A stretch of 64,000 nucleotides of DNA from Octopus sinensis (lineage: Eukaryota), in NCBI RefSeq assembly GCF_006345805.1, contig NC_042999.1, positions 139,686,001-139,750,000 on the forward strand, written 5' to 3'. A program made the position numbers. Shown here one piece after another: positions 3,674-62,400 of this stretch. The first letter of the stretch is position 1, and every line of letters begins with the position of its first letter.

Positions 3674-6600
3674 ATCAAAAGATTAATTTTTATGGTGTCA
3701 AGTAAGGTCATTTGCTTTATATAAACTTATACTTTTGACGTTGGTAACTTGTGTTGATGATAATGGTAAACTGTCCCCTCCTGCTGTAAAAAGTCCTACA
3801 GGATAGACACCTTCATTGCTACCAGAAGTCACATTGCTGTCAATTGACTGAGTTGTTATAGTTTGATTGAGTGGTTTTGAAGGGTCTTCTCTTATGGGAC
3901 TGGACTGAGAACACATTTTCTCTACAATACATGATGCAGGGGATAAGTCAGAAACTAGAGAACTTTCAAATACATTAGATTTTAATTTAGCTGTTATTCC
4001 ATGTATTATATCTGTTGCTGCTTCATTTGAAACTGTAGATGTATCAAAATATTTATTCAGGTGACCATATTCGTCATCTTCAGGCCCAACAGGTTCAATT
4101 TTCACACCAGGGGCCATGCAAAAATTTTCAGAAAAGTTATTGTTTGTACTCAGTGATCCAATCTCAGAAGGCTCTTGTTTAATATCAAATGCTTGTGTAG
4201 TGATGGATGGAGTAGACTGAGATGTAACTGAAATGATAGATGATGATGGTAGAGGTGGTGGAACTGATAGTTTGGTCTGTGTGTTGTAATGGTCACCTAA
4301 GACAGTAGATGTTGAAATATGTGGTTGAGATTCTTCATATGGAAGGCGACTATCACACAGTTGTTCAAATTCTTTCATGTCCAAACGTTTTGCAATGATT
4401 TTCAACTGATGTAAAATATCTGGATCAAGATCTAATAATCCATTGTACATGTATTCAGCAAAGGCATTTAAAGCTTGTGTACTTACTTCCTCTGGAAAGT
4501 TAATTTCAAGAAAATTGCGAGAGGGGATATTTGTACTAAATACTGACAATAATTTTGGACACACAGCAGACAGGACAACTTTATGTACCTGAAACAAAGT
4601 AAATGATAAAACATGCTAATAACTTAACTTAAATCAAGGAGTAAGTCTTTATTCCTTGTTTTTCTCCCCAAAATATTCAATTCCAAACAGGAAAACAATT
4701 GTCTCTAATGAAAAATTAGTAAAATTCAAAAGTTATTTTGATTTGTGTATCTTTATTAGCAATTTGAAAAAAATTATATCAATATAGGCGCAGGAGTGGC
4801 TATGGTAAGTAGCTTGCTAACCAACCACATGGTTCCGGTTCAGTCCCACTGCGTGGCATCTTGGGCAGGCGTCTTCTGCTATAGCCCTGGGCAGACCAAT
4901 GCCTTGTGAGTGGATTTGGTAGACAGAAACTGAAAGAAGCCTGTCGTATATATGTATATATATATATGTATGCGTGTGAGTTTGTGTGTCTGTGTTTGTC
5001 CCCCTAGCATTGCTTGACAACCGATGCTGGTGTGTTTACATCCCCGTCACTTAGCGGTTCGGCAAAAGAGACTGATAGAATAAGTACTGGGCTTCCAAAG
5101 AATAAGTCCCGGGGTTGATTTGCTCGACTAAAGGCGGTGCTCCAGCATGGCCACAGTCAAATGACTGAAACAAGTAAGAAGAGTATATGATGTGCAGGTA
5201 ACTTTAAAAATCTTAAGAAACTGTTTGATAACTATTATAAAACACACTGAGAAAGATAAACTTGTTTACTGGACACTTGGAATATATAAACTGTCCTTTT
5301 TTACCAAAAAAAAAATGTTTCAAAAAGTTGGGCCTCCCATAAGCTTGTATTTTCTCCTATATTTTATTATTGTAATCATGTAGAATATTTTCACTAGCAT
5401 GATTCCTGAATTTCGGTTGAGTTGCACTGCTAACTTACTTTTTATATGCAGCGATTGTTTTCTGCTATAGCTAAAATATACTGTAATATATACTAGATTA
5501 CTTTAAATATTACATGCTTTTATCCACTAAAACTCTTTTTCTTGAATATGCACTATGGAAATTGTGGGGGGGGGGCATCTATTGCGACATCAAGTGCAGC
5601 AACTATGTTGGAGGCATTTCTAAATACTAAAGTTTTAAAAAGCAATATACTTACCATCACAGCAGATGAACCATTACTAATACTAGCATCACACAGTTTT
5701 CTATTCCTCCACAGCGAAGCAATGTTAGACATCACACGGCGCTGATAATTAGCAATTACAAATATCTGTTTCCGTGGAGTTTTTTCCACAGGTTTTCTTT
5801 TAGACACTTTTATTTGAGATGTTTTGGCAACACTTGAATGTTGCTGGACTGTCATGTGAGAAGTATCCTGGATAGATTTTGCAGATACCTGAGATGCTGG
5901 AATGATATTTATTTGCCTAAAATGTAAAATTTGTAAATAATATAAATGAAATAATATAAATAATATTTGTAAATAATACAAATATGATGCAAATTTAATT
6001 ACCAAAATTCCAATTTTAATTACCACATACCTATCATCTAATTGCTGATCATTGATCTGCCTTTTCTGGACTTTTGGTGCTGATGGTTGAAGAGGTGATT
6101 CATCTGCAATGTGCACAGTTGCAGAAGAGTTATTCACAATATACATCATTTTATTTTGCAATTTTTCAGTTTTTCCATAATGATCTTCCATTAAATTAGC
6201 TGTCTGCAACTATAAATAAAATTTTTTTTTTACTAAAATGAAAATTATTTGTATAACAGCAATACCCAAAACTTGATTTCAGACACATGAAAAAGTAAGA
6301 CATGAGATTCATAAACCAGGTTAAAACAGCTTATCTATGTAACGATGTGTTTATTGTAACACACACAAAATTAACATAACTTGATATCCATTTTCCATTA
6401 TGGCAGGTTTGAATAGTTCATTTGTCCCACTGTGTCATCTTGCAAAGAGCCTACAAAATGAGAAGAACAGAGAAAAATGACAAATTTTGCTGGTGTGTAT
6501 ATCTTACAGTGTGGAATAGCTGATTTTATTGTGCCACCGGCGCTACTGGGGTTTCCACATGTAGGGAGAACAAAAGTCTCTACCTCCTATATTCAGTTCA

Positions 6601-6980
6601 AATTAACAGTTATCAACTGTCTAAACAGGTAGCTCTGATGCAGGTTGCAGAGTCAACAATCTCAATCATATGCTTCAATTATTTGACATGGTTTCTACAG
6701 TCCAATGCCTGTCTTATCACCAACTCTCTTTCTCTTTATATATACATAAGCACCCATGCCAATGACATGTAAAAGGCACTCATGACAAGTGACATGTAAA
6801 AGGCACCCATGATGGTGACACAAAGGAACCTGTTCCAAAGACACTCTTGAAGTGGTTGGTGTTAGAAAAGGCAAAGCCAAAATCAGACTGGAGCCTGATA
6901 TAGTTCTCCGGCTTACCAGTTCTAGTCAAACCATCTAACTCATGCCAGCATGGATAACAGATGCTAAATGATGATGATGA

Positions 6981-59400: not shown

Positions 59401-62400
59401 CCCACCTGCAGTAAATATGATATTCCTGATTGTTGAGGTAAGTCCATATTATAAATCCTTAACGTAGAAATTTGCGTGGTTCGCAGACAATGATTTGTGT
59501 AGATCTGAGAACAACCAGCCTCTCGAGAAATCTCTTTCATTCGAGTTCCGAGAGTGTTTTTACCAATTGGCATGTTATCATACCATGGAACTTCATCTGG
59601 ATTCACATTCTGCTTACTTCTTTGCCAAAAAGCATCACAGAGTGGATTTAAGAGGTTAATGTATTTTTTGAAAGAAGTCAGCGGGCACCATTTATTACCG
59701 GGTATTTCATACATGCGTACTTCATTAACAGGAGGATCCCCATTGCTGTTCAGCTCAGCTCCAACCCGAAAGGTAACATATTGCAGACCCTGAGGTGATA
59801 ATTCAATACTGAAGTCTCGTTTCGAAATCTCCCGCAGATTATCGCGCCCGCGGCTACACATATGCAACATTAAATCCATGAATACCTTATTTTGCAAACC
59901 TCGTGGTTTGTCCTGATCCAGAGCGGACGATAGCATAATTTTCTGTATATCTTCCTCTGTAATAGGATTCTTACGCTTAATAGCATCCTTGCCCATTGCC
60001 CTCAATTTCATCAAAATTACACTGAACACTTCATTGGCTTCAATGAATTCGTCATCTGTTATAATATCTAAATGCGACATTCTCTTGAAGTGACGCTGTA
60101 AACCGTAACGCAACGTAATCATCGATTTCCGAGCATAGAGTTTACCACTAACTTGGCGCACCTCTGTGTAGAACTTTTGCAGAAATCGGCTTAATTGTTG
60201 AGCAGGCTTTTTTTCTAATAAAGATAAAGTAGTGTGTTGAGTTCTACAATAGTCCTTTAGAATTTTGACAGCACTTTTGATAATATTTTGAGTTCGTAAC
60301 GATTCATCTAAATCGATAAGCTCCACACCGTTCATACGGTTTGGAGAAACACATGCTTTAGGGTCTTGTGCTTCTGGTTGAGAATCGCCTAGGCTGTTGG
60401 ACGCCATGTTGAGTGACAGAATTAAAAAATAATTATATAATGAAATCTATGAGCATTCAGCAATAACTGCTAGCTTTTGACTAAATATAGAACCATACAG
60501 TGCAATAAAATCGGCTGCAGTAACGTGTGTAAAGAATTACGTTAATGATACTATGATGCAAAAGCTGTTTCCACTCTCATATTTCTCCCACCGCCATTTT
60601 CCTGTATTACACTTATTTCCCATGGGGAACAGTAGACTATTGACCGACAGTAGTAAGTCCACGTGAGATGCACTAGCCAATGAGAACATCCGTAGTCATA
60701 GTTCTAGCTATTACACTATTACATGGCAACTAATAGCTAGGTAATAGCAAGAGGAAGATCGAGAATTAAGCTACCGCGAAACAATATATTTCGAGAAGCC
60801 AATTACTGAATAGCAGACTCATCCAATCGAAAAAATCGCAGCAGATGTTACAATGTCTCTAGAAAACAAAAACAAACAATACAAAAGAAAAAAAAAATAA
60901 ATTAAAAAAAAAAGAAGCAATTAACCTGGTAACAATCCAATAGCGGTATAGGGTCAGGGTGCTCCGGAGTGGGGCCGTTCTTACCAATAAAATGCAAGCT
61001 ACATAAATATGTCCATGGTTTGATGTTATTAACAGTGAAGTATAATCGACCGCAAGCTTTCACCCAACGCTGACACTTCGCTAAGTCTTTGTGTGGTTTA
61101 GGGAATGGAATCCACCAGACCCCTTTCATTTGCGGTCGGTTAGGATAGCGGCTATCACTTTTACAGGTACCATAGCTACAATGACGATTGGCCGGCATTT
61201 TGTGTATAAAGTCGTTAAAAATTATTTCGTCCTTCCACAAGATTCATCAGAACTTCAACAGATCCATGCAGCAATGCGAAAAAAAAAAAACCCAGTCATT
61301 TATATTCACTATTAAATACATCAAACATGTTCGAAAAATGCTGGTCACGAGGTTGAATAGAATATTATGCTGTCTAAAGTAAATGTAGCACTAGGATTTA
61401 TTGATTACCGTCATCTTATGATAACAGTAACTTCCCGAAAAATTGAACAACAGCGAGTGTTTTCTAAATCCTATTTAATTTTTAGCACAAAGTTAAATAT
61501 ACAGAGTAAAAGTGAGGGAAAAAAAGCAGGCACTTCGCTTTGATAAACTGCTTAAGTATGGCGGACAATAATCGTAGTCACAAACATAGTTTGTCCTATA
61601 AAATATACAGTAATCTACACATGATAAAACCTGCTGTTAACTCAGACATAGCAGCAGCAGTGGAAGGAGGGAAATAGCAGCAGCAGTGAAAGGAGGGAAA
61701 GAAGTCAGATAAGGAGAATCAACACAGACAAGTTCAACACGTCAGTAATAGCAGTAGCAGTAGTGAGTGTTACCATGGCAACGACCAGGAAAAGAGCTCT
61801 CTTTAACATGTCCTAAATACAGCAGTAGATTCAGGTAGTGGGCAATGCAAGTTAGCTATTTTACTATTTTTTTTTCTGTCTCCATCGTACAATAGCAATC
61901 ACTAGTTCTATTTACAGACGCCTTGTACTCTTCAGACACCACATCAACACAGAACCCTTATTTCTGACCCCATATCAAAACGAATATTTGCGGAAGAGGC
62001 AGCTCTAGTAATCGCCCCGCTTTAAAATATATAGTAAGATAATTTAGAAAATAATGTGAAAGGATGCCAACAATGAGAACAAAAATAGAAAAGAAACTTT
62101 TTGGATCTTGCAACTACAAAGTTACCCCCTTATCGAACATGCTTTATGGGCTCAAGGAATAGTTACTATGACCTTCCTATTATCCAAGATTCATTCTTAG
62201 CACAGTATGATTGTATCGAAGTTAGTAGATCAAGCAAACACACAGGTACCCAAATTTAGACATCGGTAGGCAGCCCTCATGATTAAGCTACAAGATGGTG
62301 AGAAAGAGTAATGAAAACAATAGAAAAGTGATTGGCTTCCTTTCGAATCAATAAGAGGGACTGAAACACTTGCCAGTAAACGAAACATTCTCAATACTGG

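Follow-up and report, generated by a model that had tools for sequence, protein, structure and literature searches.

We analyzed a window of 64,000 nucleotides (nt) of Octopus sinensis DNA (no N, 36.5% G+C; all positions below are those of this window) and found three paralogous BTB cassettes on the minus strand, each lying behind alternative first exons that carry differing modules. This arrangement, proposed in a preliminary description made from the DNA itself, is confirmed. The fuller reading, to which we assign a probability of roughly 0.85, is that the window covers part of a BTB gene cluster of cephalopods, located on a single O. sinensis chromosome, where a few loci give rise to many related regulator proteins by means of alternative starting exons whose modules are mostly transposon-derived. 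Transcription would start at one variable exon possessing its own ATG, a module of DNA-binding type and a phase-0 donor just past the module. The donor of the chosen exon would be joined to the acceptor of the first constant exon (exon A), and downstream variable exons, having no usable acceptor, would be removed together with the intron. The product would be a nuclear regulator composed of one DNA-binding head, a basic linker, a self-pairing BTB domain and a tail, and each variable exon would presumably be served by a separate promoter.

Constant cassettes, variable first exons and their junctions

The borders of the constant exons were read from the sequence and compared with public proteins, which are designated here by P numbers:

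56495..56730, minus strand: cassette 1 exon A, linker; acceptor in phase 0, donor in phase 2; present in P0002-P0010
56104..56407, minus strand: cassette 1 exon B, linker and first part of BTB
54681..55745, minus strand: cassette 1 exon C, rest of BTB, Ser/Thr/Pro-rich tail, stop; Pfam BTB 2.7e-8
27128..27327, minus strand: cassette 2 exon A
26739..27033, minus strand: cassette 2 exon B
24188..25165, minus strand: cassette 2 exon C, BTB, tail, stop; Pfam BTB 4.4e-7; 100% identical to P0023
6031..6209, minus strand: cassette 3 exon A
5655..5916, minus strand: cassette 3 exon B; donor joined in P0013 to a fourth cassette outside the window
3698..4588, minus strand: cassette 3 exon C, BTB, tail, stop; Pfam BTB 2.1e-8; 89% identical to P0027

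Exon A begins at a phase-0 acceptor with a pyrimidine tract ahead of it; the intron that follows exon A has phase 2, and that between exons B and C has phase 0. The linker encoded by the constant body is basic and proline-rich, and the tail is rich in Ser, Thr and Pro. The Pfam BTB match of exon C corresponds to profile positions 23-107 in all three cassettes, the first ~22 positions being located in exon B, and the domain spans positions 3-107 of 110 in the full proteins P0003 and P0023. Exon C of cassette 1 is 100% identical to isoforms X1-X3 of O. sinensis LOC115209932. When the cassettes were compared by blastn, similarity was confined to exons B and C and was not found in the introns (80-94% between cassettes 1 and 3, 76-84% between cassettes 1 and 2). 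A Pfam search of the 8 open reading frames (ORFs) of the constant exons detected no DNA-binding family. The preliminary description had claimed three tandem minus-strand cassettes with phases 0/2/0 that encode linker, BTB and tail, phase-0 acceptors at 56730, 27327 and 6209, and the lack of a DNA-binding domain in the cassettes; exon borders, Pfam matches and public proteins bear out each of these points.

The tails of exon C (54684-55500, 24191-24900 and 3701-4340, minus strand) contain psi-K-x-E motifs (VKQE and VKTEP), which we take to be putative SUMO sites, and a C-terminal YPVGLF, all of which are kept across the family according to the alignment consensus. The A-B intron of cassette 3 (5917-6030, minus strand) is open in frame and yields a single ORF at 5553-6209. 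Its retention would add a stop-free hydrophobic stretch, and its openness is probably a matter of chance.

Nine exons of the window start with an ATG, eight from the preliminary description and one that was absent from it. They are listed with their length in amino acids (aa) and their donor (the slash marks the exon end):

60926..61198, minus strand: THAP zinc finger exon, 91 aa; donor CAG/GTTAAT, phase 0
59406..60407, minus strand: Crypton-type DUF3504/QRICH1-like exon, 334 aa; donor CAG/GTGGGT
57996..58448, minus strand: C2H2-like exon with one finger, 151 aa; donor CTG/GTAAGT
57354..57713, minus strand: zf-C17orf113 / TTF-type finger exon, 120 aa; donor AAG/GTAAGT, 9/9 consensus positions
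43511..43885, minus strand: FLYWCH finger exon, 125 aa; donor AAA/GTAAAC
30312..30749, minus strand: CENP-B_N + HTH_Tnp_Tc5 candidate exon, pogo-type, 146 aa; donor TTG/GTAAGT
13923..14093, minus strand: candidate exon with GRPRK (AT-hook-like) and STPR-type repeats, 57 aa; donor AAG/GTAACG
10840..10950, minus strand: first exon absent from the preliminary description, 37 aa, no known domain; donor AAG/GTTCGG
8147..8425, minus strand: STPR-like basic-repeat exon, 93 aa; donor TTG/GTTTGT

All eight exons noted earlier proved to be as described: each opens with ATG, contains a whole number of codons and runs up to a phase-0 GT, and its frame reaches a stop 3-66 codons later. As a control for chance, we scored ORFs of at least 60 aa for an in-frame donor with at least 7 of 9 consensus positions within the last 20 codons; 5 of the 8 exons passed vs. 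13 of 256 control ORFs. The junctions themselves were obtained by searching the window exon by exon against public proteins, mapping the records back and reading the joints. Public gene models are automatic predictions, and the protein records merge isoforms in 90% clusters (the cluster of P0005 has 32 members). The predicted exon end and acceptor were matched exactly in all six public records checked, which cover five of the nine exons:

P0003 (O. sinensis LOC115209932 X3): DUF3504 exon to cassette 1; residues 1-334 identical; ...SGISYLLQ followed by AGPSNQ
P0010 (O. bimaculoides X15): 'C2H2' exon to cassette 1 exon A; residues 1-151, 94.7% identical
P0023 (XP_029634354.1, LOC115209904 X2): FLYWCH exon to cassette 2 across a 16,183-nt intron; residues 1-125 identical; ...MEIFQTNK followed by AGSSNK
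P0016 (O. bimaculoides orthologue of P0023): FLYWCH exon to cassette 2
P0067: STPR exon to cassette 3 exons A and B; residues 1-93, 81.7% identical
P0013 (O. sinensis LOC115209901 X2): exon 10950-10840 to cassette 3 exon A; residues 1-37

Variable exons lying between the chosen exon and its cassette are skipped in all three models that span such exons, namely P0003 (C2H2 and TTF exons), P0023 (CENP-B exon) and P0013 (STPR exon). The splicing of alternative ATG-bearing first exons in phase 0 to a shared BTB cassette, as the preliminary description read the locus, is therefore supported for five of the nine exons. Among the eight splices that it had named, those of the DUF3504, C2H2, FLYWCH and STPR exons stand exactly in public models; those of the THAP, TTF, CENP-B and AT-hook exons fit structurally and occur in no public record seen (the THAP exon, if used, would be joined to 56730 across a 4195-nt intron).

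The further claim of a DNA-binding module in every exon stands in part: three of the eight exons match a Pfam family above cut-off, two match below cut-off and three have no Pfam family. Those above are the exons for THAP (8.9e-8, 33.2 bits), FLYWCH (1.8e-13, 50.8 bits) and CENP-B (CENP-B_N 4.3e-9, 36.3 bits; HTH_Tnp_Tc5 8.5e-15, 54.9 bits). The CENP-B exon also shares 38% identity over its full length with the N-terminus of P0045, a CENP-B + BTB protein, and its donor lies at the same position as that of the CENP-B exon of O. bimaculoides X14. Below cut-off are the DUF3504 exon (DUF3504 20.4 bits, QRICH1 25.0) and the TTF exon (zf-C17orf113 7.1e-4, 19.8 bits); for the latter, zf-C17orf113 fills the top three Atlas clusters, with a best score of 0.94 and 187 shared features. 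The 'C2H2' exon owes its label to a C-x4-C-x12-H-x4-H pattern spotted by eye; its only Pfam matches are weak (GAGA 0.043, zf-C2H2_aberr 0.019), and it has no Pfam family at 0.01 and no Atlas family. Neither the AT-hook nor the STPR exon has an STPR match in Pfam, even at an expect value (E) of 0.1. A profile built from 8 STPR-type N-termini of family members, which has high composition bias, matched these two ORFs only (1.8e-5 and 2.3e-8, respectively) among 703 six-frame ORFs, and the STPR label is a provisional one that rests on this purpose-built profile. By composition-adjusted BLASTP, the AT-hook exon can be aligned from end to end with residues 1-55 of P0050 (40% identity, E 4e-7), a protein with Pfam STPRs (3.8e-18) and BTB, and the STPR exon (8425-8147) has no significant match to it (E 0.65). 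A tblastn search of the window with 69 collected proteins revealed no further exons. Upstream of the FLYWCH exon, an ATG-started ORF of 35 aa at 45157-45261 (minus strand) has a perfect donor, AAG/GTGAGT. As a mini-exon, it has no support and no homologue among the collected proteins, and it may be due to chance.

The wider family, its conservation and the BTB domain

Exon C of cassette 1, used as a query, retrieved 21 longer proteins, including isoforms X5, X6, X9, X14, X15 and X18 of O. bimaculoides LOC106877732 (98%) and an isoform of Argonauta hians (81%). The N-termini of the six O. bimaculoides isoforms are CENP-B, THAP, FLYWCH, CENP-B, C2H2-like and weak HTH_29, respectively, and isoform numbering in this orthologue, which has DUF3504 N-termini as well, reaches X18. 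All but one of these six (X15) have N-termini that are not in the window, as do O. sinensis X1 and X2, both of which are DUF3504-type. Therefore, more variable exons lie upstream, in keeping with the earlier guess that they would be found past 64000; the N-termini of P0002 and P0004 are likewise absent from the window. The distal isoforms have in common a short linker directly before exon A (HFVGGNGPTRDHPDPLPV..., also given as HFVGGNGPT...) that is not in the window either. It resembles the last 28 aa of the THAP exon of the window (60941-61024, minus strand; 54%), a resemblance suggesting that the linker is probably an internal exon derived from a THAP exon located further upstream. It is conceivable that the ancestral gene was THAP-BTB. 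At the other end of the window, a fourth cassette with its own STPR-type first exon (P0024, P0025) lies below position 1. P0013 runs from the donor of cassette 3 exon B (5655) to exon A of this cassette, skipping cassette 3 exon C and yielding a product with one and a half BTB starts; this join is either real read-through or a chimeric prediction.

An all-against-all search gathered 50 family proteins at E 0.001 or better. A Pfam head was found together with BTB in 26 of 65 proteins scanned (15/21 + 11/44), and the head was N-terminal in all 26, which upholds the claim that the polarity is the reverse of that of Drosophila lola and mod(mdg4). The heads of the family comprise THAP, DUF3504, CENP-B/Tc5, FLYWCH, STPRs, ZSWIM3_N/FAR1, CG-1 and BrkDBD, and the head-plus-BTB layout is also present in O. 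bimaculoides, Argonauta and a cuttlefish record.

The BTB part of the cassettes is under purifying selection. Between cassettes, the ratio of nonsynonymous to synonymous substitution rates (dN/dS) was 0.18-0.26 in the BTB part of exon C; exon B gave values of 0.25-0.45, and the tail gave 0.68-0.71. All three BTB copies have thus been kept. Between O. sinensis and O. bimaculoides, the FLYWCH exon (P0016) has 4 changes among the 62 residues of the domain and 12 among the remaining 63, the 'C2H2' exon has 8 among 151 residues, and cassette 2 has 2 among 85 residues of the BTB part and 29 among 250 alignment columns of the tail. In a tree from a quick search (48 rows), one clade with a Shimodaira-Hasegawa-like approximate likelihood ratio (SH-aLRT) support of 96 contained cassettes 1 (with its O. 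bimaculoides and Argonauta counterparts), 3, 4 and 2, together with a group from cuttlefish and another two loci of O. bimaculoides. Within this clade, cassette 2 sits with a cassette from O. bimaculoides and Argonauta that has a ZSWIM head. Conservation across Octopus, Argonauta and a cuttlefish is shown.

Modeling suggests that the BTB body is a complete fold able to pair with itself. A homodimer model of P0003 residues 468-606 scored 0.83, and the best of 3 controls scored 0.00. The runs agreed on at least 87% of contacts, and the predicted local distance difference test score (pLDDT) was at least 83; in this model the interface is made of residues from both exon B and exon C. The mark for a dimer was reached by 21 of 30 proteins solved as pairs of one chain and by none of 23 solved as single chains. 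For eukaryotes the figure was 17 of 29, yet just 1 of the 7 that lack an older solved relative passed, and since BTB dimers have already been solved, the pass obtained here possibly reflects memory. Pairing in the cell, mixed dimers between isoforms or cassettes, and binding to DNA would be expected of such proteins. By sequence, the nearest solved BTB domains are those of IVNS1ABP (2e-5), SLX4 and KLHL3 (profile 6.2e-4), all with weak E-values.

Alternative explanations and the origin of the heads

Several observations weigh against the proposed array. Support for the junctions rests wholly on automatically predicted models, some of which are possibly chimeric, as P0013 with its run from cassette 3 into the fourth cassette illustrates. 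Four of the eight exons are missing from the public records seen, and a search with the CENP-B exon among longer proteins (607 candidates) gave no match at E 0.001 or better; little weight attaches to the absence of the four, given that the records merge isoforms in 90% clusters. The extra linker exon shared by the distal isoforms means that one exon plus the constant part is not the whole rule. As for the heads, exon 10950-10840 and the 'C2H2' exon belong to no recognised DNA-binding family, and DUF3504 is not established as a DNA-binding domain: it is a domesticated Crypton recombinase domain for which DNA binding is a proposal, according to passages of the account of these elements (PMC3212892). 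No shared motif was obvious by eye in the 150 nt before each exon, with no formal motif search made, and no catalytic remains of transposases were present in 42 intronic ORF pieces (45-74 aa) downstream of the exons. Finally, the weak matches to solved structures do not settle the BTB subclass, and with it a role of transcription-factor type.

We regard it as highly improbable that gene prediction created the fused isoforms artificially and that the DNA-binding exons are in truth single-exon genes of their own, or relics of transposons, that happen to lie upstream of ordinary BTB genes. The predicted nature of all junction support and the four exons without a model would fit such an account, as would the look of over-joining in P0013, which joins two cassettes, and in P0039, which has a DDE_3 transposase domain between THAP and BTB. 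Yet every exon's frame closes within 66 codons past a GT that is in phase with the acceptor, good donors are far more frequent among the exons than among the control ORFs, and no catalytic domain was found behind any exon in the 42 intronic ORF pieces. Moreover, the head-plus-BTB layout recurs in O. bimaculoides, Argonauta and the cuttlefish record, and the window CENP-B exon has its donor position in common with that of O. bimaculoides X14. Quite unlikely, in our view, is an arrangement where the variable exons are mutually exclusive internal exons under one shared upstream promoter with a non-coding leader, the choice being made by splicing. Start sites are not visible in the sequence, the 'C2H2' exon has a pyrimidine-rich stretch and a CAG 22 nt ahead of its ATG, and the internal linker exon of the distal isoforms implies that at least one THAP-derived exon in the cluster has an acceptor. 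On the other hand, every variable exon has an ATG of its own right where its domain begins, and no clear acceptor was seen by eye before the ATGs other than that of the 'C2H2' exon. Exons with both a phase-0 acceptor and a donor would also tend to concatenate, which they do in no model.

A different alternative leaves the splicing design real and concerns the constant part, which might be chiefly a cullin-3 substrate adaptor or scaffold, with the heads bringing ubiquitin ligase activity to chromatin or other targets. This we consider unlikely. The closest solved relatives are indeed Kelch-family BTBs and SLX4, and one cuttlefish record has been auto-named KLHL1_4_5, but the E-values to the Kelch-family BTBs are weak and no BACK or Kelch domain was found in any head-bearing family member scanned. 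The dimer model does not discriminate here, as Kelch-type BTBs dimerise too.

We retain the array of alternative first exons as the preferred reading, and its heads bear on how it may have arisen. Most heads are the N-terminal DNA-binding parts of transposases: THAP (P element), the CENP-B/Tc5 helix-turn-helix (pogo), FLYWCH, FAR1/ZSWIM3_N (Mutator-like elements, MULE), TTF-type (hAT) and DUF3504 (Crypton). The array would most likely have grown along two routes, one in which transposons landed upstream of a BTB gene and were captured by way of a donor site, and the other by duplication of exons and of whole cassettes. The N-terminal position of the DNA-binding part in transposases explains why the variable part precedes the constant one. 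Exon duplication contributed as well, since there are several CENP-B and STPR heads and three DUF3504 heads that are ~30% identical to each other. Capture on the spot is plausible. Among 124 ORFs of at least 75 aa, the single match to a catalytic domain was a mariner piece unrelated to the array; terminal repeats were not searched.

One might go further and regard the array as a transposon trap at the protein level: the N-terminal DNA-binding part of a transposon that had landed would be captured as a first exon, and the product would bind the ends of the transposon's own family and bring a BTB-bound repressor to them. Almost all heads are DNA-binding modules of transposases, from at least six superfamilies, as such a trap would lead one to expect. 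Against the idea, the exons have been preserved among Octopus species and their layout extends as far as Argonauta and cuttlefish, which means that turnover is not fast; moreover, no source elements are left at the sites. The idea is speculative and probably wrong; if true, BTB cassettes would serve cephalopods as KRAB zinc-finger genes serve tetrapods, and the invader itself would deliver the specificity in finished form.

Transposons surrounding the exons had been described as decayed, and the mariner and RVT_1 pieces nearby are indeed fragments only. The following features were noted in the window outside the array exons:

38637-39431, minus strand: mariner transposase remnant, HTH_48 + partial DDE, 265-aa ORF, inside the 16-kb FLYWCH intron and on the array strand; no sign of exon use
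40092-40355, plus strand: RVT_1 retroelement fragment
1200-2900, minus strand: retroelement debris, including a PHD-like ORF at 2461-2709
47403-47476, minus strand: Rfam tRNA match of 32.8 bits (cut-off 29), none by ARAGORN; probably a tRNA-derived repeat

Comparison with known systems and significance

In protocadherin and UGT1A clusters, alternative ATG-bearing first exons stand in a row, each with a donor and without an acceptor. The chosen one is spliced to the first constant exon, variable exons further down are left out, and several such clusters may stand in tandem. Their variable exons are mutual paralogues that encode extracellular or catalytic domains. The array described here likewise has tandem alternative first exons, each with a start codon and an N-terminal domain. 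Unlike in those clusters, its heads are unrelated DNA-binding modules, mostly of transposon origin, its constant part is the body of a BTB regulator, and a promoter for each exon is only presumed.

With regard to the encoded proteins, a close parallel is with Drosophila lola and mod(mdg4), for which passages of an eLife paper on Tramtrack BTB domains give 20-30 isoforms per locus (PMC11426971). As in these genes, RNA processing links a single BTB body to numerous alternative exons of DNA-binding type, FLYWCH included. In lola and mod(mdg4), however, the constant BTB is N-terminal and the variable exons lie at the 3′ end, so that the polarity is reversed, and some isoforms need trans-splicing, whereas the parts of the octopus array are collinear on one strand and trans-splicing is not needed. 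The array differs also in that its heads come from at least seven unrelated families. Furthermore, the BTB of lola and mod(mdg4) is of the Tramtrack type, a motif that the same passages report as absent from Mollusca (PMC11426971).

Precedents for the capture of transposase domains come from vertebrates. As related in passages of the Crypton study, isoform b of vertebrate KCTD1 arose when a Crypton inserted upstream of a BTB gene, giving a single DUF3504 first exon fused N-terminally to BTB (PMC3212892). With the same polarity and the same DUF3504 module, it is the closest precedent for capture upstream of a BTB gene. It represents a single capture at a BTB gene of the T1/KCTD type, whereas capture in the array would be repeated, with many module families and several tandem cassettes. 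In host-transposase fusions, as set out in passages of the study describing them, transposase DNA-binding domains lie on their own exons and are alternatively spliced to host regulatory domains, and those of tetrapods mostly use an acceptor ahead of the transposase ORF (10.1101/2020.05.07.082677). The octopus array likewise has CENP-B_N/HTH_Tnp_Tc5 and THAP on exons of their own and BTB on exons B and C; in contrast to the tetrapod fusions, its captured part comes first and uses a donor. The term 'BTB' does not occur in the text of that study (10.1101/2020.05.07.082677).

The preliminary description had also stated that no description of the system in molluscs was known to its author. This holds for the design of the locus, of which no account was found in full-text literature (supplements not covered), but not for the combination of domains. 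Mukherjee and Moroz reported in 2023, in passages on these families, that most Octopus CENPB factors, and mostly THAP genes, carry BTB/POZ (PMC10027918). Judging from these passages, their THAP-BTB and CENPB-BTB factors are probably the same proteins as the array products, although the authors regard them as expanded genes distinct from one another, whose BTB is 'transposon-derived'. The main text of that paper does not use the term 'first exon', and the passages in question mention no shared cassettes or locus structure; its supplements may list loci. Tandem BTB gene clusters have been described in oyster, as whole-gene duplicates in the passages concerned (PMC12111275), and a passage in a paper on F-box genes notes in general terms that BTB can occur together with domains of transposons (PMC12062965). 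The design of the locus, in which variable first exons are arrayed on BTB cassettes in tandem, appears to be undescribed; the isoforms are already in RefSeq as uncharacterised proteins.

If our reading is true, the array would represent a third, independent animal route to many regulators from one locus, in which the outcome mirrors that of insect lola and mod(mdg4) and the gene design mirrors that of protocadherin clusters. It would extend the single case of KCTD1 isoform b to the serial capture of transposase DNA-binding domains. Several of the reported Octopus THAP and CENPB 'expansion genes' are probably isoforms that share one BTB body. The locus is now defined well enough to ask whether the choice of isoform is specific to cell type in the large nervous system of cephalopods, and whether the products would act on transposons or on host genes.

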